A stretch of DNA of 64,000 bases from an uncultured Nitrospiraceae bacterium (GCA_963730935.1 CAVSTP010000003.1:384001-448000); one strand, 5' to 3'; counted from the first letter of the stretch, positions 28,590 through 58,247 are shown. Notes: generated by a model not told the origin, from the sequence alone. Numbers and translations are program-made.

Positions 28590-28599
28590 ACCTGCCTAC

Positions 28600-36053: not shown

Positions 36054-36107
36054 CGAGATCTTTTCCTATTACGTCCGCAAAGGCTCCACATCAGATTGTT
36101 ACAAGCG

Positions 36108-36867: not shown

Positions 36868-36939
36868 GAACCGTTGCCGTGCTTGGACGGTAGGGCGGCA
36901 ATCAAAAACACATCTTTCGGCCAGCTCATTGACAGGATC

Positions 36940-38966: not shown

Positions 38967-39036
38967 TCAGGGCGGGTCAATCGTCAAATTAAGCTGCTTG
39001 TTGGCTGTTTGCGGCGTCGGTGCTGGCCGAATCCTA
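38967..39036 (-). pseudogene. Orphan C-terminal fragment of an Ig-repeat gene
   Basis: Translates APTPQTANKQLNLTIDPP*, matching paralog ends SAPTPQIVHKQLGLLINPP* and STPTPQTASKL. Confidence 0.7.
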
Positions 39037-39072
39037 GTGCGGGGATGTAAGCAAGTCTTTCTATAGATTAGT

Positions 39073-41343
39073 TTATGGGTTGATCATGATCGATAGATCT
39101 TGCGTGTCTGATAGTCCTCCTGCGTCCTGAACCTGGACGGTAAATGACGCTAGGCCTGCCGCAGTGGGCGTTCCTGAAATCACGCCGGTCGGCGCATCTA
39201 AATTCAGGCCCGCTGGCAGCGTCCCCGTGGAGATACTCCAGGTCAGCGGTGCCGTCCCTCCGGTTGCCTGTAACGTCGTTGGACCGTAGGCCACATTGAG
39301 GGTTCCATCTGGGAGCGACGTGGTCGTGATATCAGGCGGGTTAGGTGGGGGCGCGGCAGCGTTGATCACGATCGACAGATCCTGCGTGTCAGTTTGACCC
39401 AACGTGTCAGTGACTCGTACGGTGAAATTCGAGGTTCCTGCGGTGGTCGGATTGCCTGAAATCACACCAGCCGGGCTTAGAGAGAACATCGCTGGGAGCG
39501 ATCCACCAGCGAGCGTCCAGGTGCGTGTCCCTACGCCTCCCGTTGCTTGTAGCGTCTGATCGTAGGCCTGGCCGACAGTTCCTGCCGGAAGCGATGTGGT
39601 CGTGATATCCGGTGGGTTAAGGAGGTTGATCGTGATCGACAGATCTTGTGTGTCACTTTGTCCGAATGCGTCTTGAACTCGGACAGTAAAATTCGATGTG
39701 CCTGCTGGCAGGATCGGCGTCCCTGCAATCGTGCCGGTCGTCCCACTCAAAGTTAGGCCCGGTGGCAGTGTCCCTCCGGAGATGCTCCAGGTCCGTGCCC
39801 CCGTCCCTCCGGTCGCTGCCACAGTCTGGCTATAGGCCTGACCGATGCTTCCACCGGGCAGCGAGGTCGTCGTGATATTTAGCGGAGGGGGTAGGTTGAT
39901 CGTGATCGACAGCGCCCGCGTGTCAGACTGACCCAACGAATCTGTGACCCTCACCGTGAAGGGGAAGGTTCCTTGAGTGGTTGGAGTGCCTGAAATGATT
40001 ACACTGGGTCCAGTTAGGGGAGCGATCGTGAGACCGGGTGGGAGCGATCCCACAGTGATACTCCAGGTAAGTGTGCCCATCCCTCCGGTTGCTTGCAATG
40101 GCTGATTGTAAAGCTGACTGACCGTGCCTGCCGGCAGCGAGGCCTGTACTATCTGTGGGGGGTTGTCTGTCCCAACGAGAATAGAAAGCGCTTGCGTATC
40201 ATTCTGTCCGAAAGTGTCTGCAACGCGGACGGTGAACGGGAAGCTGCCGGTTGCAGTCGGCGCTCCTGTGATCGTGCCGGTCGTCCCACTCAAAGTTAGG
40301 CCCGGTGGCAGTGTCCCTACGGAAATGCTCCAGGTCAGCGGTGCCGTCCCGGTCGCCAGCACAGCCTGGTTATAGGTCTGGCCGATGGTTCCAGCGGGCA
40401 GCGAGGTGGTCGTAATATTCGGCGGGCTGGGCAAGTTAACGGTAATCGAGAGAGCACGGGTGGCAAACTGCCCCAGGGTGTCTGTGACCCTCACCGTGAA
40501 GTTGAAGGTTCCTTGAGTGGTTGGAGTGCCTGAAATGATTACACTGGGTCCAGTTAGGGGAGCGATCGTGAGACCCGGTGGGAGCGATCCCACAGTGATA
40601 CTCCAGGTAAGTGTGCCAATGCCAGCGGTTGCCTGTACCGTCGTCGGACCGTAGGCCACATTGACTGTTCCACCAGGCAGCGAGGTGGTCGCAATTCCTG
40701 GCGGGCTCTGCGGGTCAATGCGAATCGAGAGAGCTCGCGTATCCTGTTGTCCACTTGTGTCTGCAACGCGGACAGTGAATGAGGAGTTGCCGGTTGCAGT
40801 CGCCGTTCCTGCGATCACACCGGTATTAGGATCCAGACTGAGACCCGCGGGAAGTGTGCCTGAGGTGATGCTAAAGGTCAGCGGTCCGAAACCACCAACG
40901 GTTTGAACAGGCTGGCCATAGACCGCGCCGATATTTCCGGCCGGCAGCGAGGTCGTCGTAATTGAGAGCGGGGGTTTGATTGTTAAGCTAAGAGATTGCT
41001 CTATTGTTTGGGGAGGGATTGAGGAATCTGCCAGGGTAAATGTATGCAAAGTGGTTCCCACCGTGCCTGATGTCCCGGTGATCGCGCCGCTTTGCGTGTT
41101 GAACGAAAGACCGGAAGGAAGCGCCGGTGTGACCGACCACAAGTACGGCAGCGTGCCTCCCGAACCACCCACTGAAGCCGAATAGGGTTGGTTGACTTGC
41201 CCCTCGGGAAGTGAGGTGGTGACGATCGCCAAACCTCCAGGGGTCGGGCCACTGTCACCACCGCAGCCGGTCAACCCTAAGATCGAAATACTAGAAAAAA
41301 TCACTGCACAAACAATATGACCGATGATGTTTCTACGCGTCAT
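39073..41343 (-). CDS. Putative Ig-repeat lipoprotein, 8 domains
   Basis: Lipobox LTGC + GGDSGPTPG; eight repeats. Confidence 0.88.
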   Translation of the reverse strand: MTRRNIIGHIVCAVIFSSISILGLTGCGGDSGPTPGGLAIVTTSLPEGQVNQPYSASVGGSGGTLPYLWSVTPALPSGLSFNTQSGAITGTSGTVGTTLHTFTLADSSIPPQTIEQSLSLTIKPPLSITTTSLPAGNIGAVYGQPVQTVGGFGPLTFSITSGTLPAGLSLDPNTGVIAGTATATGNSSFTVRVADTSGQQDTRALSIRIDPQSPPGIATTSLPGGTVNVAYGPTTVQATAGIGTLTWSITVGSLPPGLTIAPLTGPSVIISGTPTTQGTFNFTVRVTDTLGQFATRALSITVNLPSPPNITTTSLPAGTIGQTYNQAVLATGTAPLTWSISVGTLPPGLTLSGTTGTITGAPTATGSFPFTVRVADTFGQNDTQALSILVGTDNPPQIVQASLPAGTVSQLYNQPLQATGGMGTLTWSITVGSLPPGLTIAPLTGPSVIISGTPTTQGTFPFTVRVTDSLGQSDTRALSITINLPPPLNITTTSLPGGSIGQAYSQTVAATGGTGARTWSISGGTLPPGLTLSGTTGTIAGTPILPAGTSNFTVRVQDAFGQSDTQDLSITINLLNPPDITTTSLPAGTVGQAYDQTLQATGGVGTRTWTLAGGSLPAMFSLSPAGVISGNPTTAGTSNFTVRVTDTLGQTDTQDLSIVINAAAPPPNPPDITTTSLPDGTLNVAYGPTTLQATGGTAPLTWSISTGTLPAGLNLDAPTGVISGTPTAAGLASFTVQVQDAGGLSDTQDLSIMINP
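39941..40617. repeat. Near-identical intragenic direct repeat (39941-40077 and 40481-40617)
   Basis: TCTGTGACCCTCACCGTGAA...CTCCAGGTAAGTGTGCC recurs at 540-bp offset with few mismatches. Confidence 0.85.
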
Positions 41344-41465: not shown

Positions 41466-42813
41466 CTAAAAGTGGAAACGTAGGCCGAAGAGAAACATCA
41501 GGGAGGAGGCGTCATAATCGCCGGTCAGTCCGCCGCCGGTCGGCGCGCTTCTTTCGAAACTCCCACTATCTTTCTTCCACGCCATCTCGGTATTAACCGC
41601 CAGATTGGATGTGATGGGGAAGTCAAAACCGCCGGCCACACGCAGGGCGAAGGTATTCGGGAATGAAAAGGACTGATTGTTCAGCAGTGCTCCATTGCTG
41701 AATGAATGGGCATTCAGCCCGGCACCCAACGACGCGTAGGGAATCAACCATTCGAACCCTACAGTATTTCGCAGCAGATCTCGTGTGGGACGAAATTCCA
41801 CTACCGGTAAAAATGAGAACGTGTTTAAGGTTCCGACTTCAGTACCGCGCCCGTTGATCTTGTATCGTTGCCATTCGATCATCATTCCCACCCGTACCCA
41901 TTCTTTGAGGACATAGTATCCTTCGAGATTGACGAGAGGCCCTACAGAGGTGCCGCTGCTCAAGCCCTCTAATATCTGTTGGGTTGGGACGATCAATCCT
42001 GCTCGCAGGCCGACCACGAAGTCGCCCCCAACGGATCGGCCCTTCGCTTGTTCAGAACCTGTGGCAGGGGCCTCTTGCGGGGGTGCTCCCTTCGCCTCTG
42101 TTGCAGGAGTGATGGACGCCTCTTGGGCCGCCTTCGCCGCGGCGGCAGCGGCGGCAGCTGCGGCAGCGGCCTCCTGGGTCGCCTTCGGCGCTGTGGGAGC
42201 TGCACCGGGGGCCTCTTGGGCCGCCTTCGGCGGAGGGAGCTGCACCTGGGGCCTCTTGGGCCGCCTTCGGCGCTGACGGAGCTGCACCGGGGGCCGCCTT
42301 GGGCGCTGTGGGAGCTACGCCGGCGGCCTGTTGGGCCCCCTTCGCCGTAGCGGCGGCTGCGGCGGCTGCGGCAGCTGTGGCAGCGGCTTCTTCGGGCGTG
42401 GGCGTCTCGCCTTTTCCCTTCGGCTGGAGCGCTACCTGAATAGGACATCCGATTTCTAACGTTTCTCGTTTTTCGGGAACGACGAGCTCGCAGATGGCAT
42501 TTTTGTACAGTAGTAATTCACAGGAGGTTGGGCCACCGGTGGACTGCTGACATTGAAGATTGCTGATATTGATTTCGCAGATCCCGGGCTGCGGACATTG
42601 GTAGGTGGCCAGTGGTCCACCCTTGCCGGAAGTGACCGTCCAGACGCCGTACCGCAGCCCACGCTTCGCATCCAAGACATTTCCCACTTGGGAGATAATC
42701 CAATTTACTCGTGTAGGGAACTCATCCTCTGTGTGCTGTTGCCATTCAAGGGATTTCGTGGCGCATCCCGATACCAACAGCGCACAAGCCATTGCACAGA
42801 TGTGTTGCCGCAT
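41466..42813 (-). pseudogene. Frameshifted gene: Cys-rich lipoprotein domain + Ala/Pro repeat linker + outer-membrane beta-barrel
   Basis: ORFs 42052-42813 and 41466-42287 join through a repeat copy 2 nt short at ~42233; PYASLGAG and terminal FGLRFHF barrel signatures. Confidence 0.75.
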
Positions 42814-43842: not shown

Positions 43843-46026
43843 ATGCCAGCCGAAGTAGGGAGGGTTCCTCCTGGTCCCCATTTTTCCGCGTCGCCATCGC
43901 CCGGTGTGACTGACACCGGGTTGATCTGCCTCCTGATTTTGGCCCGCTTCTATGATCTGCCGGCCGACGGATCGCAACTGCGCCACTTGTACGCGCCGCC
44001 TGGGCAATTGCTCTCAGATACCGAACTGCTTCGTGCCGCCAAGCACTTGGGGCTCAAGGCCGGAGTGGTGAAGACGCAGTGGCAAAAATTAGCCAGCACG
44101 CCGTTTCCTGCGATCGCAAAGCTACAGGATGGCCGATATGTTGTACTCGCCAGGATCGACGGCGACAAGGCCCTGATTCAGGACCCCGTCGAGGGTCGTC
44201 CGCTCGTGTTGTCTCGTGAACAGTTTGAGTCGAAGTGGACGGGCGAACTATTGTTGTTCGCGAAGCGGGCGAATCTGCGTCAGGAGGATCTCAAATTTGA
44301 CTTCAACTGGTTCATTCCTGCCATCGTCAAATACCGCACGTTCCTTGGCGAAGTGTTCGTCGCCTCGTTCGTGTTGCAGTTATTCGCATTATTGACGCCC
44401 CTCTTCACGCAAGTCGTGATTGACAAGGTGCTAGTGCACAAGGGCTTTACGACCCTGCATGTGCTGGCGATCGGGATGGTCGCACTGGCCATCTTTGATG
44501 CCATGCTCGGCGGTCTACGCACCTATCTGTTTTCGCATACCACCAATCGGATCGACGTCGGGCTGGGCGCTCAATTGTTTCGCCACATTTTAGCCTTGCC
44601 GCTGGCCTATTTCGAAGCCAGGCGTGTCGGCGACACGGTGGCTCGGGTGCGTGAACTCGAACACATCCGGCAGTTCCTGACAAGCCATTCCGTGACAGTC
44701 GTGCTCGATCTCGTGTTTACGGTCGTGTTCCTGGTCGTCATGTGGTTCTACAGCTCTACGCTCACGATGGTTGTGACGGCGTCGCTACCATTGTATGCAC
44801 TGCTGTCGATCGCGATCACACCGACGATACGCGCTCGCCTGCACGAGAAGTTCAATAGGGGAGCGGAGAATCAATCGTTCTTGGTGGAGGCGATCAGCGG
44901 GATTCAGACCGTCAAGGCTCTGGCGGTCGAGCCGTCGCTGCTGCGCAAATGGGAAGAGCAGCTGGCGGGGTATGTGCGGGCAAGTTTCCGTGCAACGAGT
45001 CTCATTACCGTGGCCGGGCAAGTTGCAGGCTGCATCCAAAAACTCACAACCGTCGCCGTGCTATGGGTGGGGGCCTATCGAGTGATCGAAGGAGACCTCA
45101 GCATCGGGCAGTTGATCGCCTTTAACATGCTGTCGGCGCAAGTGACGGGACCGTTGCTGCGATTGGTTAGTCTTTGGCAGGAGTTTCAGCAGGTGGGGAT
45201 TTCTGTGCAACGATTAGGCGATGTGCTCAACGCCCAACCGGAGCCATCGTACAAGCCGAATCGGACGACATTGCCCCAAGTCGCAGGACAGGTGACCCTC
45301 GAAGACGTGACGTTTCGCTATCGCCCTGGCAGTTCGGAGGTGCTCCGGAAGATTTCGTTCTCTGTCACTCCAGGCAGGGTCGTCGGCATTGTGGGGCGCT
45401 CAGGATCCGGCAAAAGTACGATTGCCAAACTGATTCAGCGACTGTATGTGCCGGAGCGTGGACGCATCCTCGTGGATAATGTTGATCTTGCGCAGGTCGA
45501 TCCGGCCTGGTTACGGCGGCAGGTGGGAGTGGTGCTTCAAGAAAACTTTCTCTTCAACAGTTCCGCGCGCGACAACATTGCGTTGACGGACCCCGGCTTA
45601 GCGATGGAGCAGGTCATTCAGGCGGCGAAGCTGGCGGGTGCGCATGAGTTCATTCTCAACCTGGCGGATGGCTATGACACCATGGTCGGCGAACACGGCT
45701 GTTCGCTTTCCGGTGGACAACGGCAACGCATTGCCATTGCAAGAGCTTTGGTCGCCAACCCTCGCATTTTGATTTTCGATGAAGCGACGAGCGCACTGGA
45801 TTACGAGTCCGAAGCCGTCATCCAAAAGAACATGGCGCAAATTTGCCAGGGACGGACCGTCTTCATCATCGCGCATCGGCTCAGCACGGTGCGGCCAGCC
45901 CATCGGATTTATGTGATCGATAAGGGCGAACTTGTCGAAGAAGGGTCGCACCAAGAACTTCTGCGTGCCAACGGTTTTTACGCACGCTTGTGTAAGTTGC
46001 AGGATAGCGGAACGGGCATGGCATAA
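43843..46026 (+). CDS. Type I secretion ABC transporter, HlyB family, with C39-like domain
   Basis: FDFNWFIPAIVKYR, GRSGSGKST, LSGGQRQR, FDEATSALD. Confidence 0.95.
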   Translation: MPAEVGRVPPGPHFSASPSPGVTDTGLICLLILARFYDLPADGSQLRHLYAPPGQLLSDTELLRAAKHLGLKAGVVKTQWQKLASTPFPAIAKLQDGRYVVLARIDGDKALIQDPVEGRPLVLSREQFESKWTGELLLFAKRANLRQEDLKFDFNWFIPAIVKYRTFLGEVFVASFVLQLFALLTPLFTQVVIDKVLVHKGFTTLHVLAIGMVALAIFDAMLGGLRTYLFSHTTNRIDVGLGAQLFRHILALPLAYFEARRVGDTVARVRELEHIRQFLTSHSVTVVLDLVFTVVFLVVMWFYSSTLTMVVTASLPLYALLSIAITPTIRARLHEKFNRGAENQSFLVEAISGIQTVKALAVEPSLLRKWEEQLAGYVRASFRATSLITVAGQVAGCIQKLTTVAVLWVGAYRVIEGDLSIGQLIAFNMLSAQVTGPLLRLVSLWQEFQQVGISVQRLGDVLNAQPEPSYKPNRTTLPQVAGQVTLEDVTFRYRPGSSEVLRKISFSVTPGRVVGIVGRSGSGKSTIAKLIQRLYVPERGRILVDNVDLAQVDPAWLRRQVGVVLQENFLFNSSARDNIALTDPGLAMEQVIQAAKLAGAHEFILNLADGYDTMVGEHGCSLSGGQRQRIAIARALVANPRILIFDEATSALDYESEAVIQKNMAQICQGRTVFIIAHRLSTVRPAHRIYVIDKGELVEEGSHQELLRANGFYARLCKLQDSGTGMA

Positions 46027-46042
46027 GCCGAAGGCGCGAACA

Positions 46043-47434
46043 ATGGCGTTCGGTACGCTCGCGAGACATTGGACCATCTGGAAGACGACGTGGCAAGCCG
46101 TGTCGACTCGCGAACTAGGCACGGCACCAGGTGGGCGGGCCACGGAGTTCCTGCCGGCTGTGCTCGAGATCCAACAGGCGCCGCCATCTCCCATTGGCCG
46201 TGCAATCACATGGACCATTATCGCCGTATGCACTGCTGGAATTTTGTGGGCCACATTCGGGTGGATCGATATTGTCGCGACCGCTCAGGGGAAGGTTATT
46301 GCCAGCGGCTATTCCAAGGTCATTCAGCCCTACGAAACCGGTGTGATTGCGTCGATTCACGTGATAGATGGGCAGGTCGTAGCGCGTGGCGAGGTACTCA
46401 TCGAATTGGATCCGACACAAAACCGCGCAGATCACGATCGGGCGTCCAATGAATATCGCGCCGCGAAAGTCGATGCGGCTCGATTGCGGGCCTTGATCGC
46501 CGGCAAGAGCACCTTCGATGAACCTTCAGATGGGGATCCTCGGTATATCCTGCTCCAACAACAGCTGCTGCGTGACCAATTGACCGAATACCAGGCTCGC
46601 GTCGGTGCTGCTCAGCACCTGATCGGTCAACGCAGAGCGGCGCTCGATCAGACCAAAGAAAACATTCGCCGGCTGGAGGCCACGGTGCCGATGGAAACGG
46701 AGCGGGCGGATGCTTACAAGAAACTGCTCGAACACGATGCCGCCACGAAGCTCGATTTTCTGCAGGCCGAGCAGCAACGAATCGATAAGACCCAAGAACT
46801 AGCCGGACAGCGCAAGAAGCTCGTGCAAGACGCAGCCACACTCTCGGAGGCCGAAAACAATTATCGGGTTACTGTGACGGAGTTCCAGCAGGCCAAACAG
46901 GCGGAGTTGTCCACGATCGAGACGAAAGCTGGTTCGCTGGCTCAAGACGTGACGAAGGCGGGACAGAAGGCGGACTTGCAACGATTGATGAGTCCCATTG
47001 ACGGCGTCGTGCAGCAACTCTCGGTGCACACGGTCGGTGGTGTGGTGACGCCGGCTCAGCAACTGCTGATCGTCGTACCTCAAGATCATCCTGTCGAAGT
47101 GGAAGCCCAAGTGGAGAACAAAGATGTGGGGTTCGTGAGAGAGGGGCAGCCGGTCGAGATCAAGGTGGAAACGTTCTTGTTCACGCTCTACGGCACGATT
47201 CCCGGGAAGGTGTTGTCAGTTTCTGGCGATGCCGCGGCGATCGAAAAAGTCGGTCTCATCTATCCCACGAGAGTGAGCATGGACCGGTCCACAATCGAAG
47301 TCGACAGCAAGCAGGTGAATCTCTCGCCGGGCATGGCCGTCACGGTGGAAATCAAGACGGGGAAGCGCCGCTTGATCGAATACCTTTTGAGTCCTCTCCT
47401 CAAATCCGTCAAAGAAAGCCTGCGGGAGCGGTAG
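46043..47434 (+). CDS. HlyD family type I secretion membrane fusion protein
   Basis: EFLPAVLEIQ, SPIDGVVQQL, GGVVTPA, EIKTGKR..YLLSP; ATG at 46043. Confidence 0.95.
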   Translation: MAFGTLARHWTIWKTTWQAVSTRELGTAPGGRATEFLPAVLEIQQAPPSPIGRAITWTIIAVCTAGILWATFGWIDIVATAQGKVIASGYSKVIQPYETGVIASIHVIDGQVVARGEVLIELDPTQNRADHDRASNEYRAAKVDAARLRALIAGKSTFDEPSDGDPRYILLQQQLLRDQLTEYQARVGAAQHLIGQRRAALDQTKENIRRLEATVPMETERADAYKKLLEHDAATKLDFLQAEQQRIDKTQELAGQRKKLVQDAATLSEAENNYRVTVTEFQQAKQAELSTIETKAGSLAQDVTKAGQKADLQRLMSPIDGVVQQLSVHTVGGVVTPAQQLLIVVPQDHPVEVEAQVENKDVGFVREGQPVEIKVETFLFTLYGTIPGKVLSVSGDAAAIEKVGLIYPTRVSMDRSTIEVDSKQVNLSPGMAVTVEIKTGKRRLIEYLLSPLLKSVKESLRER

Positions 47435-47438
47435 CAAC

Positions 47439-48812
47439 ATGTCGAGCCCGCTCGTTTTGTCACTCACCGAACGCTTGCGGGCCTTTGGGTCCTTGATCGG
47501 CATCGTCATTGCTTTGTCTGTACCTAATGGTGTGAGCTGGGCAATCAGTGACCAGACAGCACCAGAGAAGGCTGCGCCGCTACCGCCTCTGTCGCTCACG
47601 TTGCGCGGTGCGTTGGCAGCCGCAGTGGACAATAACCCGGATGTGCAGCTGTACAAAGAGCGTATCGAAGCGGCACACGGCCAAGTTCGAACACAACTCG
47701 GTGCGTTGCTGCCGAATCTCTCTTCGAATGTGCGACAGTCCAGGCAAACAGTGTTCCTCGGCACCTTTGGTCTTGCGCCGGTGCGGAGCGATCCCTTCAG
47801 TATTTTCGACCTCCGAGTCAACGGGTCGCAAAATGTGGTCAGCGTCAGCTTGATCCAGCGCTGGCGAGCGTCGCGAGAGAACCTCTATATCGCCGAGTTC
47901 GAATCGGATGCGAAGAAGTACGACACCATGGCGAGCGTGGCCCTCGCCTATATGGAAGGGCTGAAAGCCATGGGGATGGTCAAGATGCGCGAATCCAATC
48001 AGCAGATCATGAGTGAGCTGCTGAGCTTGGTCAAACAACGGCAGAAGACCGGCGTTGCAACGGGCATGGACATTGCGCGTCTGGATGCGCAACTCGCCAA
48101 TGAGAAGCAATTGGCCGCAGCATCGCGCTACGACGTGCAACACGCCAAACTGAACCTGATGAATCTGCTCAACTTGCCGTACGAAACACCATTGGCCTTG
48201 CAGGATGAATTCAAGACGGAGATGTACGAACAGCTGGAGTCTCAGGCTGCCGTCGAAGAGGCGCTCGTCAATCGGCCAGAAGTGCAGGCGCAGTTCACTC
48301 GAATCAAAGCCACCGAGCTGACGTATTCATCCATTACCGGAGAGCGGTTGCCGTCGCTGGTCGCACAGGGGGATTATGGGCTGATCGGGAATCGATGGAG
48401 TAACACGCTTGAGACGTACAATATGGCCTTGTTGCTGCAGATTCCGATTTTCGATGGCGCTCAGCGCGAAGGCCGAATTGCTGAGGCTCGAAGCAATCTA
48501 CGCCAGGAGGCGCTTCGAATGCGTTCCGTCCTCAATCAGGTCAAAATGGAAGTACACGATGCGCTTGCCGGAATCGTGGCGGCTAAGGAACAAGTCGCGG
48601 TCGCACAGGCTGGGCTGCAAATGGCCATTAAAGAACTTGAACTGGCGCGTGAACGCTACTCCGTCATCACGGCGGCCAGCTATTTCGAGTTAACCAATGG
48701 ACTGTATTCCGTGTCGAGAGCCCGAGAAAATCTCGTAAATGCGCTTTTTCAGTTGAACGCCTCGCGCGTCAATCTCGCCCGATCGACCGGCGCGCTGCAA
48801 TCGCTCAACTAG
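47439..48812 (+). CDS. TolC family outer membrane protein
   Basis: LTLRGALAAAVDNNP, LLPNL, RLPSL, IPIFDG, ARERY. Confidence 0.88.
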   Translation: MSSPLVLSLTERLRAFGSLIGIVIALSVPNGVSWAISDQTAPEKAAPLPPLSLTLRGALAAAVDNNPDVQLYKERIEAAHGQVRTQLGALLPNLSSNVRQSRQTVFLGTFGLAPVRSDPFSIFDLRVNGSQNVVSVSLIQRWRASRENLYIAEFESDAKKYDTMASVALAYMEGLKAMGMVKMRESNQQIMSELLSLVKQRQKTGVATGMDIARLDAQLANEKQLAAASRYDVQHAKLNLMNLLNLPYETPLALQDEFKTEMYEQLESQAAVEEALVNRPEVQAQFTRIKATELTYSSITGERLPSLVAQGDYGLIGNRWSNTLETYNMALLLQIPIFDGAQREGRIAEARSNLRQEALRMRSVLNQVKMEVHDALAGIVAAKEQVAVAQAGLQMAIKELELARERYSVITAASYFELTNGLYSVSRARENLVNALFQLNASRVNLARSTGALQSLN

Positions 48813-48962: not shown

Positions 48963-49409
48963 ATGCATCTCGGGCGCATCGGAATGGTTTTGGCGCTGAT
49001 TGAAATACTTTCCGTCATCGGGTGCGCGAGTCACAAACACTTCCCCGAATCATCCCTTACCGGAGGAGTGTTCGAGGTAAGAATTGACAACTTGCTGACG
49101 CCACAGTCGGTGACCGCAAAACGTGGTGACGAAGTGAAGTGGATCAATACGAGCCATGCCCCGGTGGATGTTTCAGTAGTCCAAACGCGGGAGGAGCTCA
49201 TCTCCTGTCAGAGGGGGTTTGCGTCAACAAATTTGGGGTATTTCTTCGGCACATCGGAATATGAGAACATTGTGATGGCGACAGTGCGCCCCAACGAATC
49301 CGCCAGCCTGTGCTTCGCCATCTCTGGAAAGTATGTCTATACCCTGCGCAAAGATCCTTCCAGAACCGGCTCACTCGATAGGATGAGTGGATCTATCACG
49401 ATCGAATAA
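48963..49409 (+). CDS. Cupredoxin-like lipoprotein
   Basis: GGAGG RBS, lipobox VIGC; LTP..V.AKRGDEVKWIN..ASLCF..G.Y.Y..GSITIE. Confidence 0.7.
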   Translation: MHLGRIGMVLALIEILSVIGCASHKHFPESSLTGGVFEVRIDNLLTPQSVTAKRGDEVKWINTSHAPVDVSVVQTREELISCQRGFASTNLGYFFGTSEYENIVMATVRPNESASLCFAISGKYVYTLRKDPSRTGSLDRMSGSITIE

Positions 49410-49412: not shown

Positions 49413-51626
49413 TTAACGGTCGCTCCGGGGAAGTATTGGGAAACGGCGAGCTGTAATGAGCCTGCCCTCAAGCTCCGACGACGACGCTGACGTGGACTCT
49501 TGGGTCCTTCCCTCAGGAAGCGTGATGAGAAAGCTTGTCCCGCTTCCCACGGTACTGCGAGCTTCGACCGTGCCGCCGTGTTCTTGAATGATCTGATGGA
49601 CGATGGAAAGGCCGAGGCCTGTCCCCACACGATCGGTGCTTTCATGTTTCGTGGTAAAGAACGGGTCAAAGATATGCGGGAGATCTTCAGGCGCAATTCC
49701 ACAGCCAGTATCCGCCACTTCGATTTGCACCCATCCACTCTTGTCGAGACGGACCACGCGGCGAGTCGTGACGGCTAGGTGCCCTCCCGTCTTCGCCATG
49801 GCGTCAATGGCATTCATGGCAAGATTCATGATCACCTGCTTAATCTGTTGGCGATCGACCAGCATGGCTGGGAGATCTTCGGCGAGGTGTTTCTCAATGG
49901 TGATCCCCAGCTTGTCCGCTTTGACCTCGATAAATTGCAGGCACGAGGAGACGATGTTGTTGAGCGATTCTGCGGAAAACTTCGGTTTCATATAACGTGC
50001 GTAGTCAAGAATTTCTTCGATGAGACGTTCAATACGGGCAAGATCGTCGACCACCTGGGCGCTGAACGAATCCATAAAATAGGGATCGTCTCGTCGCGAC
50101 GGTACCAATTGGATGAACGTACTAATCGATGTCAGAGGGTTGCGCACTTCGTGAGCAAATCCGCCTGCAATGGCTTCCAATGAACGGAGCCGATCGGCGC
50201 GCCGCAGCAGGAGTTGGGTGTGCTTCCACTCTTCATGCAAGACGGCATTTTCGAGGGCGATCGCGGCATTGTCTGCAAGCGAGCGGAGCAGGCTGAGCTC
50301 GTCGTGCGAATACAATCCCAGGCATGGCTTATGTCCGAGATTGACGAAGCCGATCAAGCTCTTCTTATTGACAAGCGGCAAGCATACTTCAGAGCCCAGT
50401 TGTGTCATGGTCTCAACCAGTGCGGCGGCCAATCGCTCGTCGAATCCTGGCGAACGTTGCTGGAGTTCTTCTTTGACGATCGGCTGATTGCACGCCAACA
50501 GGTAATTTGTAAAAGGTTCGTTGTTCATGACCCGCATGGGGCTCCGCTGCTCGTTGAGCCCGCGCGATGCCTTCGGCACATAGCACCCTTTTTCCTTGTC
50601 AAAGAGAAACAGCGAGATCTTCTCGATGCCCATGACTGTCTGGAGCGTATCTACGATTTCGGCTTGCAGATTGGCAAGATCGAGCTTCATCACCATGGCA
50701 TGCGCGAATCGGGTTAACGTCTCGTAGGCGTCATGCCGGCTGGGGAAAAACGCTCTATTGACGGCAGATTGAAGGCGTGGCTGGAAAATGAGGAGCAAGA
50801 CGGTGAAGGCGACAGTCGTGAGAGCCAGGAGCAACGAGACTGTAACGGGAGGGAGGTCATCCAGCGCATAGCCGAGGAAGACGACAAGGAGCGTGAAGGG
50901 GATGAGCGGCAGATAGACGGCGCTCCGAGACACGAGGAGGGCTGCATCCAGGAGCCGGTACCGGAGAATCGAAATTGTGATGACGGCTGTCAGCAGAAAG
51001 ATGGGAATGTATCCAAAGGGATAGATTTCATAGCCGAACGCCGGGAAGAAATCGATCGAGCCTGTATAGGCAATGACAAAGGCAGGCAGAAGGAATTTGA
51101 TCTGCTGACGCTTAATGGGAGTCGTGACGGTGCGATACGTGTGGATGTAGTCGGTGAAGGCCACGGCCATATACGAGAAGAAGATGATGAAAAATGGCGC
51201 ACTTGCCGCTCCCCATTGCGGGAAATAGCCCCACCAAAATCGATGGACGCCTGCGACAAAGTCTTCACGGAAGAGGACGGCCCCAGCCATAAGCGTTGCG
51301 AGTGCATAGCCTATCCATATCGAACGGCGACGTTGGAGTTGGAGAAACTCGGCTGAGAATCCGTAGAATGCGAGAGAGATGTACATGACACCGACATTGT
51401 CGAGTTTAAACCAGTGCAACGCTGTTTTGGCATCCGTTGAGCAAAGACCGATGCTGGTCGCGTCGAGCCAGATGGCGATGCTGGCACAGAGAACGAGGAA
51501 ATGGCGATGTGCGGGGGATTGTCTATTGGATCGGTAAACGAGGAATCCCAACGCAAGGGTGACGATCCCCACGAGAAAGATGGGAATGGCATGGACGTTG
51601 ATGAAATAGGTTGAAGCCGCGACCAT
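49413..51626 (-). CDS. Sensor histidine kinase with multi-TM (HisKA_7TM-like) input and GAF domain
   Basis: Many N-terminal TM helices; GAF LPL..LIGFVNLG..Y..ELSLL..AAIALENA; FAHEVRNPL, FDPFFTTK, GTGLGL. Confidence 0.88.
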   Translation of the reverse strand: MVAASTYFINVHAIPIFLVGIVTLALGFLVYRSNRQSPAHRHFLVLCASIAIWLDATSIGLCSTDAKTALHWFKLDNVGVMYISLAFYGFSAEFLQLQRRRSIWIGYALATLMAGAVLFREDFVAGVHRFWWGYFPQWGAASAPFFIIFFSYMAVAFTDYIHTYRTVTTPIKRQQIKFLLPAFVIAYTGSIDFFPAFGYEIYPFGYIPIFLLTAVITISILRYRLLDAALLVSRSAVYLPLIPFTLLVVFLGYALDDLPPVTVSLLLALTTVAFTVLLLIFQPRLQSAVNRAFFPSRHDAYETLTRFAHAMVMKLDLANLQAEIVDTLQTVMGIEKISLFLFDKEKGCYVPKASRGLNEQRSPMRVMNNEPFTNYLLACNQPIVKEELQQRSPGFDERLAAALVETMTQLGSEVCLPLVNKKSLIGFVNLGHKPCLGLYSHDELSLLRSLADNAAIALENAVLHEEWKHTQLLLRRADRLRSLEAIAGGFAHEVRNPLTSISTFIQLVPSRRDDPYFMDSFSAQVVDDLARIERLIEEILDYARYMKPKFSAESLNNIVSSCLQFIEVKADKLGITIEKHLAEDLPAMLVDRQQIKQVIMNLAMNAIDAMAKTGGHLAVTTRRVVRLDKSGWVQIEVADTGCGIAPEDLPHIFDPFFTTKHESTDRVGTGLGLSIVHQIIQEHGGTVEARSTVGSGTSFLITLPEGRTQESTSASSSELEGRLITARRFPILPRSDR

Positions 51627-51632
51627 GATGCG

Positions 51633-53351
51633 TTACACCGTGCGCGCCCGAGCGACCCGGTGTAAATCCTCCTCGGTGACGTAACCGACAGAATTGCGAA
51701 ACGGCGCCAGGCGAAACCCCAGCAAACGGCCCATGGCGGTGATGTGCTCAGCCTGGGTGGGATCGGCCTTTCCAAGGGAGTAGTGTCCGGTCCATCCAAT
51801 CGCGGTCAAAATCATGGTTTCCGACAGACAGCCGAGGGCTTCTTCTGCTCCCACGTCCAGATCGAAGTGCACATCAATATCATTAGGCGTTCTGACGATG
51901 GCGGATTCGATGACGAGGACATCGGGCCGCTGGAGTGGAACGTCCTCGGACACGTTCTTCGGCTGTGCGGCATCGATGACAATGGCACCAGCTTTCAGGT
52001 GAGCCGCGGTCAATAGAATATAGGGGTTATTCGTCATGGCGATAACAACATCCGCCTTCGACACTTGGTCGAGACTCGTCATGCCTTTGATGATTGAAGG
52101 CTGGTCGCCCAACTCTGAGATGAGACTTTGAAGTGCATCCTTCTTGATATCGATGATGAACAGTGTGCCGACAAGCCGGGCAAGAATCTTCGAGCAAGCG
52201 GAACCTACCGATCCGGCACCTCCGACAATCGCCACGGTGGCATGCGGCAGACTGAGATTGGTCAGGGCGGCTGCATGAAGGACATTCTGGACGGCAACAG
52301 CGGCCGATTGGGCGTTTCCTGTGGTCAATCCGAGCCGGACCTTGCCCTCCAGCTCTTGTCCATCCCGGGTGAGGATCGAGGTGAATGCGCCCAATCCTGC
52401 GATGGTCGCTCCCATTTTTTCCGCCAGGCGAACGGTCTGCCACACACGTAGGCGAGCGAGTCGGGGGTTGCGAATCATCTGTTCTGTCGTCAGCGGTGAA
52501 ATCAGAATGGCACCCATCGTCGGGGTTCCATTCGCCAGGGTCAGGCCAGTGATGTAGGAGGCCACCAACGGCCATTGATACCGAATCCAGCGTTCGACGA
52601 CATAGGAAGGCAGCCGGCTCGCAAACGGGAACTTACGCGCAACATCGCTCAGTGTGCGGGGATGACCAATGAAGGCAAAAGTAATGGGCGTGACGAGGAG
52701 ACGGGCGAAGGGAGCAGGCAGGAATCGGACGATCAGGTCGCGAAAGACTTGAAGGAGGTGCCAAGCTCCTAGCCATACGGCAGGCCAGGATACGCGTAAT
52801 GGAGCTTGATCCGTCTTCTTGGGTGCCTCTCGGACGGACGGTGACGCCAGGGGGTGGGCCAGACGAGCCGACTCAGCCTTACGATCCACTGTGGGCCTGT
52901 GAGCGGGATGATAAGGATTGTCTGTAATGAATAAGGATAGAATTGACCGGGGATTCGTCGTTACGAGACCCGCTCGGGCTGATGCTCGTGCAGGTCCCTC
53001 CGGCATTTCCAGGCTCTGGAGATAGGTTTCCAGCTCCTGCAAGGCAGACTCAAGGACCAGCCGTATGGTCTGCCCCAAAGCGTCGAGAGCGATGTCGACC
53101 CTAAATCGAGTGGGCGAATCGCCCTCATCCTCGGTCACTGCGGTCACGCGTCCCGACAACGGCATGTAGGCGACATTCTGGCTGTAGCACAGAACGACAG
53201 TCACTACAGCGCCTGGTGAGGAGACGCAATCAGTCAAAAATGAGATCCGATCGAGGCCGAGTTCTTGAGTGACCCCTCGCGCCTGGCTTCCTCCAAGATC
53301 GACCACGACGGGCAGGCTTACGGCGAGCTGACTCGAAACGGTACTTCCCAC
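51633..53351 (-). CDS. Acyl-ACP reductase-like (COG5322-type) oxidoreductase with N-terminal PilZ-like domain
   Basis: FAFIGHP, LGAFTSI, TTGN, VAIVGGAGSVGSA, IDAAQPKN, GCLSETMIL. Confidence 0.75.
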   Translation of the reverse strand: MGSTVSSQLAVSLPVVVDLGGSQARGVTQELGLDRISFLTDCVSSPGAVVTVVLCYSQNVAYMPLSGRVTAVTEDEGDSPTRFRVDIALDALGQTIRLVLESALQELETYLQSLEMPEGPARASARAGLVTTNPRSILSLFITDNPYHPAHRPTVDRKAESARLAHPLASPSVREAPKKTDQAPLRVSWPAVWLGAWHLLQVFRDLIVRFLPAPFARLLVTPITFAFIGHPRTLSDVARKFPFASRLPSYVVERWIRYQWPLVASYITGLTLANGTPTMGAILISPLTTEQMIRNPRLARLRVWQTVRLAEKMGATIAGLGAFTSILTRDGQELEGKVRLGLTTGNAQSAAVAVQNVLHAAALTNLSLPHATVAIVGGAGSVGSACSKILARLVGTLFIIDIKKDALQSLISELGDQPSIIKGMTSLDQVSKADVVIAMTNNPYILLTAAHLKAGAIVIDAAQPKNVSEDVPLQRPDVLVIESAIVRTPNDIDVHFDLDVGAEEALGCLSETMILTAIGWTGHYSLGKADPTQAEHITAMGRLLGFRLAPFRNSVGYVTEEDLHRVARARTV

Positions 53352-53772
53352 CAGTGCGTTATTCCTCCCGGCTCAATGCTGTGTTCCTTGACAGAAGCCA
53401 CCTCTCCTGAACCCTGCATTCTTTAGTACAGAGCACTCACGTGCTGTGGGCAATCAATATTGCGTGATAGTGGCTTTTTGTCAATGCGACGGAGAGGAAA
53501 AGGGGTGCCTGTAGGACAAGAACGGATCTTACGTCTAATCGCCGATAGACATATGATCTGCACGACTCGGAACGAAAAAACTGTATGAACCGGGGCGCGT
53601 TGTTGGTATACGGGAACAGGCAGGTGTTTTCACCTACACCCCCCATGACAGCTTCAAAGGGGATTTGTCTTGGCACGCAACGTAAAGTGCGGGAGTCTTT
53701 AGGACGTAAATGCTGAACCGGTGACATGATACGTAGAACAACCTGTATGACGCAGTCGACAGCGAAAGAACA

Positions 53773-55167
53773 ATGCTACAGATGTGGTTGAGACGAGTCA
53801 TCGTGGCGGCAAGTCTCGCTCTCGCTTGTCTGTCTCCGACGGTTGGTTCGGCGGGGGCCATACGGATCTTCGATCAGAGCGCCTCGGGAACGGCTCAAAG
53901 CGGCGCCTTTGCCGCACAGGCGGACGATCCCTCAGCCGTCTATTTCAATCCAGCTGGCTTGACGCAATTGAGAGGGGTGCAAACCTCCTTCGGCGTCATG
54001 TTGCTCGGTGGACATACCACATACACAAGTCCATCGGGTGGGACTGCCAGGGGGGATTTTGGCGGAAGCGTGGCCGTTCCTCCGCCAATCAATTTGTATT
54101 TCACTGCGAACTTGAAAGATCTCGGGGTCACGGCGCTCGGTGATCTCAGTGCTGGCCTTGGCGTGGTCTCTCCGTTCGGGGTTCTCTACCGTTACCCTGA
54201 CGACGGCCCTTTTTCGACGGCCGTGACGCGACAATCGCTACCCCTCATCGATATCAAACCCACGCTCGCCTATAAGCTGAACGACCAACTCTCGGTTGGC
54301 GTTGGTGCGGACATTTATACCTTTGCGAGCTTTTGGGGAAGCGGACAGGCTGTGACGAAATTCAACTCATCCGGCGGCCCCGGCCTACCGCCTCCCGGCA
54401 CGCGGATGGAGGTCAACGGCGGGGATACGGCTGCCGGGTTCAATCTGAGTCTCTTGTACACGCCGTTCCGGAATGAAGATGGAAAACCACTGGCAAATGT
54501 CGCCGTGATTTATCGCAGTCAGGCTACGATGCATCTGAATGGCAATTTCCTCGCAAATGGCGGCCTGGTCGCTGATGCCTCGACGACGCTCGTGTTGCCG
54601 CAGATCTTTACCGGCGGGATGTCGATCTGGCCGATCAGAGATCGCAACCATGAATGGAAGTTGGAGTTAGACGTGGATATGACTGGATGGAAATCTGTCC
54701 GGAACACGGACGTGCATCTGTCCAATGGCACGACCATTCCATTCGCTCAGAACTGGCGGAATGCTTATACGACGATGGTTGGCACGGAGTACAAGTGGCT
54801 CAATCTGGAGAAACTGCCGGCATGGGAGGTAGCGCTCCGTGGAGGCTATTGGCACTCGCAGACACCGATTCCTGACAGCTCGTTTCTGCCCACCATTCCC
54901 GATGCGGATCAGCATGCTATTTCAATTGGGACGGGTTTCCTCTGCAAAGGCAACGGCCACTTTCTGGGGCTGATTGAATGCGGCAAGGCCGAGGGAGGAA
55001 TACTGAGACCCAAAGCAATCGGTCTGGATTTGGCGTACCAAGCGATCTTCTATGAAACGCGAACTGTCAGTGGCAATCTCAATCCTGTGGCCATTCCCGG
55101 CGTCGTCAACGGGACGTATCAGACGACCTTACACGTTGGGATGATTAACCTTCGGGTAAACTTTTAA
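53773..55167 (+). CDS. FadL/OmpP1/TodX family outer membrane channel
   Basis: Signal peptide; DQSASG..GAFAAQADDPSAVYFNPAGL hatch motif; PTLAYKLNDQLSVG; terminal F. Confidence 0.92.
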   Translation: MLQMWLRRVIVAASLALACLSPTVGSAGAIRIFDQSASGTAQSGAFAAQADDPSAVYFNPAGLTQLRGVQTSFGVMLLGGHTTYTSPSGGTARGDFGGSVAVPPPINLYFTANLKDLGVTALGDLSAGLGVVSPFGVLYRYPDDGPFSTAVTRQSLPLIDIKPTLAYKLNDQLSVGVGADIYTFASFWGSGQAVTKFNSSGGPGLPPPGTRMEVNGGDTAAGFNLSLLYTPFRNEDGKPLANVAVIYRSQATMHLNGNFLANGGLVADASTTLVLPQIFTGGMSIWPIRDRNHEWKLELDVDMTGWKSVRNTDVHLSNGTTIPFAQNWRNAYTTMVGTEYKWLNLEKLPAWEVALRGGYWHSQTPIPDSSFLPTIPDADQHAISIGTGFLCKGNGHFLGLIECGKAEGGILRPKAIGLDLAYQAIFYETRTVSGNLNPVAIPGVVNGTYQTTLHVGMINLRVNF

Positions 55168-56378: not shown

Positions 56379-58247
56379 ATGTACCTTCAGTTTTATGGTC
56401 TTACCAAGGAGCCATTTAAGACCACCCCCGACATCGATTTTCTCTTCCTCAGTCCTAGCCACAAAGAAGCGTTAGCCTGCATTGAGTATGGCATTCGGCA
56501 GCGTAAAGGCTTCGTTGCGATCACCGGCGAGGTGGGAGTCGGTAAAACAATGATCCTTCGGTCCTATCTCGACAAGGTGGGTCCAGAAAAACAGAAAACC
56601 ATTTATATCCTGAATCCCAAGGTCAGCTTCGACAATCTTCTCAGCACCATTCTCAGGGAATTGGGGGCGGAAGCCATTGCAGGGCAAGCAACGGACAAGC
56701 TCAACCAATTGCATGAGGTGTTGATCGCTGAATACCGCAACGACTATACGGTCGTTCTCCTGATCGATGAAGCCCAGAACATACCGATCGAGACGCTGGA
56801 AAGTATCCGCATGCTGTCCAACCTGGAAACGGCTACGGAGAAACTAATTCAGATCGTCCTGGTGGGTCAGCCCGAACTGGACGAATTACTCAACCGTCAT
56901 GAGTTGCGCCAGGTTCGTGAGCGGATTGGGCTTCAGGCAAGGATTGCACCGCTCACCAACGCTGAGAGTGTCGCCTACATTGATCATCGCCTCAGTCTTG
57001 TGAGCAGCGATCCACGGAAGGTCTTTTCAAAGCAAGCGCTCAATCGAATCGTTGGGTCGGCCAAGGGTATTCCGCGAAGATTGAACATTCTTTGTGATAG
57101 CGCCCTCATCACAGGATACGGCTATCAGCAACCGAGGATTTCGGGGAAGATTGCGAAAGAGGTGATTGCTGATCTCAATACACATCAAAAATACCAATCT
57201 GAACCTGCACGGAGACTCCAGCCGCGGTACGCATTGGGCCTGCTGAGTGTCGCCGTCGTCGTCGTCTTCTATTTCATGAATGTATCGGCCATACCAGAGA
57301 TCCCGATCAGTAAACCATCAACGGTTCAAAATGGCATCACGGTCAGTGAACCATCAACGGTTCAAAATGGCGGCACGGTCAGTAAGCCGTCAGCGGTTCA
57401 AAATGGCGAGCACCCAAAGACTAGTGTCAGTAGTCTGGAGACGGGTCAACACATGGCTCCAGTCGCTGGCCACGCAGAACCCATGCCACCGGCACGCGTG
57501 GTTAGGGTGCTCGATGCTACAGCGGAGACTGATTTATCCCCGGCTGAGAGGATGGAATTAAGTGAGACGGCCAGGCTTTTGGCCGTTCTTTTGGATTCCG
57601 GAAGGGTCGTGATCGGACGAGCGCAGGCGACGATCAATAACCCGAGACTGGAGGACAAAGGGTTTTCTTCGAGCGTCTTTGAAGGCCAACTGAGAAAAGA
57701 GTTTCAGGCAAGAACTCGACATGATCTGCACAATCTTGCCGCCGCCCCCATGCCGGAGTCTGCTAAGCCCTTGCTCCTGCGGCTGTCGTTTTTCATGCAG
57801 AAGGCCGTCCATGATGTGCAGCCCGACATCAATAAGAAGGGAATTGGCTTCAAAGGGTTCATTCCCGCGACGTTTGCAACGCAAGTAGCTGAGCGCTTCT
57901 CGAAGGACACAGGGTTAACATTGCGACAGATTGGTCCGCCCGGCGCAGAACCGCGAAACCCGAACAACAAACCGGATGACCAGGAGGAGCTACTACTCTC
58001 CGCCGTTCAGAAAAATCATCCTCGGGTTGGAGATCATATTGTCGAGCAACAGTTGTCTGACAGAAGTGGTGTTCGTGTCTTGCTTCCGCTTTTTTACAAC
58101 AAACAATGTCTTGCCTGTCATGGAAGTCCCAAGGGAGCGGTCGATATCTCCGGATATGAAAAGGAAGGCTTCAAAGAGGGAGATCTGGGAGGCGCCATTT
58201 CGATTGTGCTTTCTGCTCAGAACAAACTGGCGAGGAGCGGCGAATGA
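56379..58247 (+). CDS. ExeA/GspA-family AAA ATPase fused to a DUF3365 (Tll0287-like) heme c domain
   Basis: MYLQFYGL..EPF..TPD, GEVGVGKT, LIDEAQN, LVGQPEL, GIPRRLN; TM; FIPATF, PRNPNNKPD, CLACH, GDLGGAIS. Confidence 0.85.
   Translation: MYLQFYGLTKEPFKTTPDIDFLFLSPSHKEALACIEYGIRQRKGFVAITGEVGVGKTMILRSYLDKVGPEKQKTIYILNPKVSFDNLLSTILRELGAEAIAGQATDKLNQLHEVLIAEYRNDYTVVLLIDEAQNIPIETLESIRMLSNLETATEKLIQIVLVGQPELDELLNRHELRQVRERIGLQARIAPLTNAESVAYIDHRLSLVSSDPRKVFSKQALNRIVGSAKGIPRRLNILCDSALITGYGYQQPRISGKIAKEVIADLNTHQKYQSEPARRLQPRYALGLLSVAVVVVFYFMNVSAIPEIPISKPSTVQNGITVSEPSTVQNGGTVSKPSAVQNGEHPKTSVSSLETGQHMAPVAGHAEPMPPARVVRVLDATAETDLSPAERMELSETARLLAVLLDSGRVVIGRAQATINNPRLEDKGFSSSVFEGQLRKEFQARTRHDLHNLAAAPMPESAKPLLLRLSFFMQKAVHDVQPDINKKGIGFKGFIPATFATQVAERFSKDTGLTLRQIGPPGAEPRNPNNKPDDQEELLLSAVQKNHPRVGDHIVEQQLSDRSGVRVLLPLFYNKQCLACHGSPKGAVDISGYEKEGFKEGDLGGAISIVLSAQNKLARSGE
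57307..57407 (+). repeat. 36-bp in-frame tandem repeat x3
   Basis: TCAGTAAACCATCAACGGTTCAAAATGGC-type unit at 57307, 57343, 57379 (S[KE]PS[TA]VQNG). Confidence 0.9.

Follow-up and report, generated by a model that had tools for sequence, protein, structure and literature searches.

A predicted lipid signal-receptor cassette with interchangeable enzymes and a co-varying seven-helix sensor in Nitrospiraceae

Introduction

Nitrospira are key nitrifiers, and what is known of their cell-cell signalling mainly concerns acyl-homoserine lactones. Among better described systems, Rpf/DSF (RpfF-RpfC-RpfG) and Cqs/Lqs signalling couple a signal derived from acyl-acyl carrier protein (acyl-ACP) to a multi-helix sensor kinase, with HD-GYP output in Rpf, and in staphylococcal agr the signal and the sensor vary jointly. 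This study concerns a three-gene module at positions 49413 to 55167 of a 64,000-nucleotide stretch from an uncultured Nitrospiraceae bacterium (GCA_963730935.1, CAVSTP010000003.1:384001-448000), the whole of which is referred to here as the window. The module consists of an enzyme resembling acyl-ACP reductase (AAR), a sensor histidine kinase with a seven-transmembrane (7TM) domain, and a FadL-family channel. For the phcB-phcS-phcR-phcQ operon of Ralstonia, PhcB and PhcS are reported to sort by signal type (PMC7694676) and phcB and phcS to be under balancing selection (PMC6580516), while in Bacillus comQXPA the N-terminus of ComP is reported as variable (PMC4008528). A first-pass annotation of the window knew of no characterised system of the composition found here, and searches of the open-access literature found no account of the enzyme-7TM cassette; supplementary tables of Nitrospira and Omnitrophota genome papers may mention its genes.

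Results and Discussion

Organization of the Module

The features of the module are as follows.

51633..53351, minus strand: reductase-like gene (572 aa, GTG start, GGGAGG about 11 nt upstream of the start) for a PilZ-like::AAR/PigE-N-type thioester reductase, the predicted signal synthase (NCBIfam, PDB and AlphaFold matches)
53007..53351, minus strand: degenerate PilZ-like N-terminal domain of the enzyme, residues 1-115 (Pfam PilZ E 0.01; HHalign to the N-terminal domains of other alleles)
51828..51830, minus strand: codon of Cys508, counterpart of catalytic Cys294 of AAR (alignment)
49413..51626, minus strand: sensor histidine kinase of 737 aa, with HisKA_7TM, two helices, GAF, HisKA and HATPase_c (Pfam, motifs, model)
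50946..51581, minus strand: seven-helix membrane sensor domain, residues 16-227, co-varying with enzyme type (PF16927; tree, identities, model)
50253..50678, minus strand: GAF domain, residues 317-458 (PF01590, E 5e-11)
53456..53484, minus strand: predicted sigma70-like promoter of the enzyme-kinase pair, TTGACA-N17-AATATT (sequence motif)
53773..55167, plus strand: FadL/OMPP1-family outer-membrane channel of 464 aa, optional partner of the AAR allele (PF03349)

Both features of the layout given in the first-pass annotation are present in the sequence: the reductase-like gene ends 6 nt before the ATG of the kinase (gap 51627-51632), and fadL, on the plus strand, diverges from the other two genes, its start 421 nt from that of the reductase. 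Given the 6-nt gap, the reductase and kinase genes are probably co-transcribed. The promoter motif TTGACA-N17-AATA(G/T)T was recognisable in four of the five relatives compared, the fifth having TTGACA alone. Ten RNA runs contained 5-9% of the words, and contigs of four metatranscriptomes covered all three genes patchily, one of them spanning the junction of reductase and kinase, though on one side by fewer than 31 letters; this cover is uninformative on expression and co-transcription.

Exchange of the Enzyme Together with the Sensor Domain

Of 60 Nitrospiraceae genomes, 37 have a match to the kinase's sensor domain (HisKA_7TM, PF16927). The best 30 HisKA_7TM loci, including the window, were compared; two end before the upstream gene, leaving 28 usable loci, and in 24 of these a lipid-type enzyme is encoded directly upstream of the receptor. 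These slot enzymes, which carry PilZ-type N-terminal domains, comprise a LuxD-like acyltransferase with a methyltransferase (nine loci, one showing only the methyltransferase on its contig), an HMG-CoA-reductase-like enzyme (HMGR, seven), a FabH-like enzyme (three, one with an ACP), an AAR-like enzyme (three) and an UndA-like enzyme (two, assigned from PDB 4WWJ/6P5Q, E 3e-28). The four enzyme-less loci have other outputs (two PAS-GGDEF-EAL, one PAS-HisKA_3-REC and one fragment). As judged from sequence, five unrelated PilZ-fused enzymes are interchangeable in the slot before the kinase in Nitrospiraceae.

Many slot receptors carry two 7TM domains. In a tree of 88 such domains (FastTree), the first 7TM domain sorts by enzyme type, with clade supports of 1.0 for FabH, 1.0 for LuxD-methyltransferase, 0.94 for UndA, 0.96 for HMGR and 0.99 for the Nitrospiraceae AAR type, whereas the second mixes types. 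Among 13 double-7TM receptors, chosen by the authors to include same-genus pairs, the nearest neighbour had the same enzyme type in 12/12 cases for the first 7TM domain, 3/12 for the second, 2/12 for the GAF domain and 1/12 for the kinase core. Four same-genus pairs with different enzymes have first 7TM domains that are 30-33% identical, against 87-97% for the core, and in all four the identity rises at about residue 200-240, inside the receptor gene. Synteny of the flanking DNA extends to both sides in the two pairs for which both aligned (81-82% and 71-74%), and a third pair shows it on one side. The enzyme gene is therefore exchanged together with the first sensor domain, as a unit, at orthologous sites. 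By analogy, this co-swapping is the pherotype pattern of putative cognate synthase-receptor pairs, and the window module is one allele of a wider swappable cassette, a view that goes beyond the first-pass annotation.

Related receptor genes were also observed outside this set. Two Manganitrophus plasmids (L248:5444-9925 and L249:5119-9601) carry a double-7TM kinase and a sigma54 regulator by the replication gene, with no enzyme gene; such receptor-only copies possibly serve eavesdropping. In Ralstonia (L246:5959-9600), two related 7TM kinases surround one hotdog thioesterase gene, and in Burkholderia (L247:5977-9163) a related 7TM kinase abuts a hotdog thioesterase gene with a response regulator nearby, so that this thioesterase is a possible sixth enzyme type, in culturable Betaproteobacteria.

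Linkage of the Enzyme and the Seven-Helix Sensor

A strong full-length match to the window enzyme was present in only 10 of 150 relatives (8 of the 32 genomes of the genus), which marks the cassette as accessory, and in all ten relatives the kinase follows the enzyme. The names of its nearest homologues place the window genome in the Nitrospiraceae. A wider enzyme-centred set comprised 159 loci, 79 from named genomes and 80 from metagenomes; the kinase is directly downstream in 30/30 of the Nitrospiraceae loci from named genomes. Linkage was taken to mean a 7TM gene on the same strand no more than 2 kb away. At 390 bits or more, 77 of 80 loci were linked, the exceptions being L064 (a non-7TM kinase), L069, and L173 (contig ends). 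The 79 loci below that score, which where titled come mostly from Bacillota and Armatimonadota, included no linked one, and a broader profile gave the same result; the 390-bit split was picked after seeing the data. At 70% identity, the 159 loci reduced to 37 clusters, 18 of them linked, and a quick tree, used for that branch alone, placed a long branch before the unlinked clade. The split was rejected as a family boundary, as many linked Omnitrophota genes score 180-306 bits.

In Omnitrophota (the phylum of L063), 112 of 301 genomes had a homologue. A 7TM gene was linked in 22 of the best 30 loci, three of them re-finds, and in 11 of 20 lower-ranked loci hand-picked down the list (within about 2 kb), one more ending at the gene and eight being unlinked. 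Elusimicrobiota (the phylum of L062) had a match in 5 of 201 genomes, all five linked. Because it is kept across three phyla, the enzyme-kinase arrangement is more than chance. The receptor in L063 and L065 is a 7TM-GAF-HD-GYP protein, not a kinase, and with this change of output it is the sensor that stays with the enzyme.

Several further observations concern AAR-like genes. Those at L257, L258, L261, L264, L269, L279 and L285, with no 7TM gene in the DNA examined, lie beside class III aminotransferases, FabF with an apparent FabG-type gene, or B12 radical-SAM genes, and are probably parts of biosynthetic clusters for fatty amines or tailored lipids. Loci L070-L072, L074-L110 and L206-L245 (except L209) represent mostly one AAR-like clade in Negativicutes, heliobacteria and Armatimonadota, with no 7TM neighbour. 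An extra FabF-type ketosynthase lies upstream in the AAR-7TM loci L066 (PilZ-fused), L067, L068, L166, L167, L170-L172 and L254, which suggests a dedicated acyl chain. Arrays of HisKA_7TM genes or domains surround one reductase gene at L169:1592-7583 (five domains), L062:1196-4134 and L205. The close relative L021 (7329-11278) has one frameshift each in the reductase and the kinase, and also in a nearby ABC transporter gene, through assembly error or decay. An apparent enzyme-receptor fusion in one reading frame at L160 (6383-11305) and L126 was rejected as Rosetta-stone evidence because the junction resembles a frameshifted enzyme C-terminus, perhaps an assembly error. Within the AAR type, enzyme and sensor were correlated in a Mantel test (rho 0.45, 6/2000 permutations), a result likewise set aside as reflecting co-inheritance only. 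Viral contigs gave five Rossmann-motif matches of 36-52 residues, and a single-protein metagenome scan gave no match.

Predicted Activity of the Enzyme

Residues 222-572 of the enzyme match PigE's N-terminal domain and cyanobacterial AAR. The PigE family NF053554 was matched at model positions 51-355 with E 2e-38 (132 bits, its cut-off being 850) and the AAR family TIGR04058 with E 7e-25 (88 bits against 449.7), and PDB sequence matches were 4PPM (E 6e-19) and 6JZU/6JZQ. The AlphaFold model (pLDDT 94) superposes on AAR 6JZY with a TM-score of 0.82 at 27% identity, and on the carmabin terminal amidation domain (TAD, 9E4S) with 0.77-0.79 at 16% identity. All five motifs quoted in the first-pass annotation occur in the translation (FAFIGH at residue 225, LGAFTSI at 320, TTGN at 343, VAIVGGAGSVG at 373 and GCLSE at 507), and the parallel that it drew to the catalytic cysteine holds: Cys508 aligns with Cys294 of AAR in a column invariant in three homologue alignments, GC[LM]xE being kept in 120/120 close homologues listed. 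Its proposed likeness to AAR is therefore borne out by fold and cysteine position but not by family membership; since the score lies far under the cut-off, the enzyme is predicted to act like AAR but falls outside TIGR04058. Asp402, at the end of the second Rossmann strand, is invariant among aligned homologues; an acidic residue at this position goes with NADH preference, so that NADH is the probable cofactor.

The fold is reported to act by acyl transfer to the cysteine and then hydride reduction, giving a free aldehyde (PMC8341465, bioRxiv 2024.10.28.620694), and the domain of PigE and TamH to reduce a thioester through the same cysteine (PMC8341465). In agreement with the first-pass annotation, no aldehyde-deformylating oxygenase (ADO, PF11266) was found in the 99.9%-complete genome, a Synechococcus control being positive, and NCBIfam and Pfam scans of the 572-aa enzyme found no class III aminotransferase domain.

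The PilZ-like N-terminal domain was missed in the first-pass annotation. Its Pfam PilZ match is below the cut-off, which one of four relatives passes, and HHalign supports homology to the N-terminal domains of the UndA, FabH and HMGR types (99.3%, E 7e-21), in a comparison set that includes Pfam-positive PilZ domains. RxxxR and D/NxSxxG are the motifs of PilZ domains that bind cyclic di-GMP (c-di-GMP); both are absent from the window protein and occur in 14/120 and 3/120 close homologues, respectively. A complex prediction of this domain with the kinase GAF-DHp dimer scored 0.00, which is evidence neither way.

The Kinase and Its Sensor Domain

The HisKA_7TM domain of the kinase scores 52 bits against a cut-off of 28.6, HisKA and HATPase_c are present, and the H-box (His492), N, G1, F and G2 motifs are found. 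In the model, two further helices follow the seven, a hairpin lying between the fourth and the fifth of these. The PEP-CTERM system kinase family PrsK (TIGR02916) matches residues 24-704 with 139.5 bits, under its cut-off of 300. Comparison of the 7TM model with G-protein-coupled receptors (GPCRs) gave Z 13-16 at 7-12% identity and Foldseek E of about 1e-3, scores near the level of helical-bundle arrangement, and a GPCR relationship was kept as shape likeness only. No support was obtained for a presumed likeness to LuxN/AinR-type multi-helix sensors; LuxN has no entry among the listed matches of the 7TM searches, whose libraries possibly hold no LuxN entry. An ESM Atlas search returned HisKA_7TM and unnamed clusters only. 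In the portions of the literature available, HisKA_7TM is merely listed as a sensor domain in PMC5847659, the accessible text of bioRxiv 2020.11.15.381053 does not mention it, and no HisKA_7TM ligand was found in open-access texts.

The FadL Channel

The window channel scores 131.9 bits for PF03349 (cut-off 29.7) and 48.3 for the FadL equivalog NF007988 (cut-off 585). A fadL gene is adjacent in 22 of the 30 Nitrospiraceae AAR loci, and in 19 of the 23 with at least 2.6 kb of upstream DNA; it is lacking in the other four of these 23, next to the AAR allele in L019 and in the majority of Omnitrophota loci. As none of 21 loci with another enzyme type showed FadL, it is an optional partner seen only with the AAR type. 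In L063, L065, L287 and L288 the gene is found upstream in the same orientation, and in L195 and L205 it follows downstream. AAR-linked FadL proteins of different lineages occupy differing positions and are 24-34% identical; the four compared with the window FadL are only 24-27% identical to it, which suggests separate recruitment. The window genome has four FadL family matches, and one paralogue (G000:C4:776080-780452, L031:6078-10452), 57% identical to the window FadL, lies directly behind a GAF-kinase-REC hybrid gene. A rhizobial FadL is reported to mediate uptake of long-chain acyl-homoserine lactone signals (PMC9938287). The first-pass annotation proposed a synthase-receptor-channel layout and named a lack of co-occurrence in other genomes as refuting it. 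Enzyme and kinase clearly pass this check (30/30 Nitrospiraceae loci, three phyla), and co-swapping lends independent support to a synthase-receptor pair; the case for FadL is weaker than put forward there, the channel being optional and seen in none of the 21 loci with other enzymes.

Regulatory Output

Two response regulators, a sigma54 REC activator and a REC-HD-GYP protein, are encoded after the kinase in 6 of 22 other loci. The window genome has orthologues of both (76% and 54% identical) at C3:780.6-783.4 kb, the sigma54 activator at G000:C3:782011-783375. The paralogous kinase ahead of them has no 7TM domain; in the phospho-acceptor helix it is 75% identical to the window kinase, which probably shares this unlinked regulator pair. 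The regulators belong to a second cassette (G000:C3:780600-789000, L030:4601-12956), consisting of a PAS-PilZ-PilZ-LuxD-like acyltransferase-methyltransferase gene (1394 aa), the 7TM-less kinase (419 aa), the sigma54 REC activator and REC-HD-GYP.

Proposed Mechanism and Alternative Explanations

In the proposed mechanism, the enzyme likely reduces a fatty acyl thioester to a fatty aldehyde, or to an alcohol after further reduction. As in AAR and PigE, the acyl group would pass to Cys508 and be reduced by hydride, probably from NADH. The aldehyde or alcohol likely acts as a diffusible lipid signal, which the divergent FadL likely helps across the outer membrane and which the seven-helix domain of the downstream kinase likely senses; the ligand would lie inside the seven-helix bundle. 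Phosphotransfer to the unlinked sigma54 activator and the adjoining REC-HD-GYP protein could then reach transcription and c-di-GMP. The role would be cell-to-cell and density-dependent, with each lineage's enzyme and sensor allele forming a chemical dialect, or pherotype. This reading, in which FadL aids the entry of a diffusible aldehyde or alcohol that is sensed in the membrane, is supported by the linkage and co-swapping described above and by the failure to find an aldehyde-consuming partner (no ADO found in the genome, no fused aminotransferase), and is given a probability of roughly 0.57. A cognate enzyme-sensor pair of some kind, summed over the readings, is likely.

Several observations weigh against the favoured reading. 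AAR-like genes occur without a 7TM partner (all 79 lower-scoring loci, 8 of the top 30 Omnitrophota loci, and L064 with its non-7TM kinase), and some unlinked Omnitrophota loci adjoin FabF/FabG or aminotransferase genes. Conversely, HisKA_7TM genes occur without an enzyme (4 of 28 loci and the two Manganitrophus plasmids). The LuxD-methyltransferase cassette of L030, whose kinase is 7TM-less, indicates that an enzyme of the slot can be retained where the 7TM partner is missing, a point against strict pairing. The 13 receptors of the nearest-neighbour test were author-chosen and their kin are not independent, and a neighbouring domain can be swept along through physical linkage alone. The FadL partner is optional, and FadL genes are frequent in the family, being present in 56 of 60 genomes. 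Identity of the enzyme to AAR reaches only 26-27%, its score is far under the family cut-off, and its fold is common to the putative amidation domain 9E4S. Neither of the two regulators searched was found beside the kinase in the 30 AAR-type Nitrospiraceae loci.

The same evidence can be read in other ways. The kinase might read the product within the inner membrane of the cell that makes it, either to gauge acyl-ACP or redox flux or by direct hand-over through the PilZ-like domain, with no cell-to-cell signal. This would account equally well for the enzyme-sensor co-swap; the conserved, motif-less PilZ-like domain suggests protein docking, most alleles lack FadL, and long-chain aldehydes are established to partition into membranes. 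However, that an outer-membrane channel was recruited repeatedly next to the AAR type implies outside traffic, and five chemistries at one site would be expected of social signals rather than of a housekeeping gauge, which leaves this explanation unlikely, though far from negligible. The channel could also import a fatty aldehyde or alcohol from outside, which the kinase senses and the enzyme oxidises into acyl-thioester pools or, for a neighbour's signal, quenches. A FadL, a sensor and an oxidoreductase form the usual hydrocarbon-uptake layout, FadL is tied to the AAR type only, and the predicted NAD preference would fit oxidation. Such uptake or disposal is nevertheless improbable, because the other slot alleles are biosynthetic (an UndA-like decarboxylase, a FabH-like condensing enzyme with an ACP, a methyltransferase), an extra FabF lies upstream in several AAR loci (7/7 in one cluster, plus L068 and L254), and no beta-oxidation genes were seen in the annotated stretch around the locus.

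A different objection accepts a cognate pair but takes the sensed product to be an amide, an amine or a tailored lipid finished by unlinked enzymes. The fold is common to the carmabin terminal amidation domain (bioRxiv 2024.10.28.620694) and to the PigE reductase, which is reported to feed an aminotransferase (PMC8341465), and the relatives L257, L279, L269 and L063 adjoin aminotransferase or radical-SAM genes. Against this, AAR outranks TAD by fold and identity (27% against 16%), two aminotransferase-linked loci have no 7TM gene in the DNA examined, and no tailoring gene is conserved in the Nitrospiraceae loci, so that a product of this kind is quite improbable. Finally, enzyme and sensor might co-move merely as neighbours in a recombining island, the sensor reading something unrelated. 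The patchiness of the cassette (8 of 32 genomes of the genus), the conserved anchors for recombination offered by the kinase core and the frameshifts in both genes of L021 are in keeping with such hitchhiking. It is made very improbable by the swap boundary within the receptor gene (about residue 200-240) in all four same-genus pairs, by a pairing that persists over three phyla and a change of output domain, and by the acyl-type substrates on which all slot enzymes would act.

With the diffusible lipid signal as the favoured reading, the cassette is likely an undescribed family of lipid signal-receptor pairs. A tentative extension, held with somewhat less than even confidence, is that Nitrospira and other little-studied bacteria possess lipid signalling cassettes in which unrelated synthases (for aldehyde-, alkene-, ester-, ketosynthase- and HMGR-type products) are swapped with a matched GPCR-like sensor, giving orthogonal dialects on a common kinase, sigma54 and c-di-GMP output. 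The module could then provide the first fatty-aldehyde autoinducer and the first HisKA_7TM ligand.

Neighbouring Genes

The following features lie elsewhere in the window.

43843-48812, plus strand: type I secretion trio (C39-peptidase ABC transporter, HlyD-like adaptor, TolC-like channel)
48966-49409, plus strand: small cupredoxin-like gene that converges on the kinase; the genome has seven other matches
25249-30296, plus strand: three tandem FG-GAP-repeat genes
34305-41343, minus strand: three putative-Ig (He_PIG) repeat genes
56379-58247, plus strand: AAA ATPase (AAA_22) fused to a C-terminal Tll0287-like domain, an unusual pairing
41466-42813, minus strand: two ORFs with a common Ala/Pro-rich repeat in overlapping frames at about 42050-42290, possibly a mis-assembled or frameshifted repeat

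The type I secretion and cupredoxin-like genes were rejected as parts of the cassette, which they accompany in close relatives only. The FG-GAP and He_PIG genes form an adhesin-rich stretch near the secretion genes, and the AAA_22 ATPase is presumably ExeA-like.

Comparison with Known Systems

The enzyme shares with AAR (TIGR04058; 6JZQ/6JZU/6JZY) the two-domain fold, the TTGN and Rossmann motifs and the position of the catalytic cysteine, but differs in its 26-27% identity, the extra PilZ-like domain, the sensor kinase partner, the lack of an ADO in the genome and an aspartate hinting at NADH. PigE/TamH of prodigiosin and tambjamine biosynthesis is its best NCBIfam and PDB sequence match; the window locus, however, has no aminotransferase domain, biosynthetic cluster or visible downstream consumer of the product. 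PrsK has a similar TM-GAF-kinase layout, but the kinase falls below its cut-off and no PrsR or exosortase gene was seen beside it. Rpf and Cqs/Lqs rely on other synthase folds and sensor domains, none of which is among the listed matches of the window proteins.

Among signalling operons, Phc of Ralstonia resembles the predicted arrangement in that the synthase of a fatty-acyl-derived signal directly precedes a membrane sensor kinase. A methyltransferase does occur among the relatives, in the LuxD-like + methyltransferase allele; no phc locus was found in a plasmid search. PhcB is a SAM methyltransferase whose variants are homologous, whereas the window slot holds a reductase and alternates among five unrelated families; the Phc operon also includes response regulators, in contrast to the 30 AAR-type Nitrospiraceae loci, where neither of the two searched was present. 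In comQXPA, signal genes and the N-terminal sensor are reported to vary jointly over a conserved cytoplasmic core (PMC4008528), as do enzyme and sensor here, but comQXPA and agr use peptide signals from homologous genes, unlike the non-homologous lipid enzymes of this family in Gram-negative lineages. Membership tests fail for AAR, PigE, PrsK and Phc; in the way they work, Phc, Rpf and Cqs signalling and the pherotype loci come nearest.

Because the five alleles share one kinase core, natural specificity controls are available. The full three-gene AAR allele occurs in the cultured Nitrospira moscoviensis NSP M-1 (L044; NZ_CP011801.1, about 1300663-1306385), which makes direct testing possible. 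The cassette points to candidate ligands for HisKA_7TM, a widespread sensor domain. In Nitrospira, a second signalling system, based on lipids and specific to the allele, could influence how microcolonies form and how strains coexist in soils and treatment plants. The exchange of non-homologous synthases together with a matched sensor exceeds the polymorphisms of comQXP, agr and Phc, in which the synthase stays homologous.

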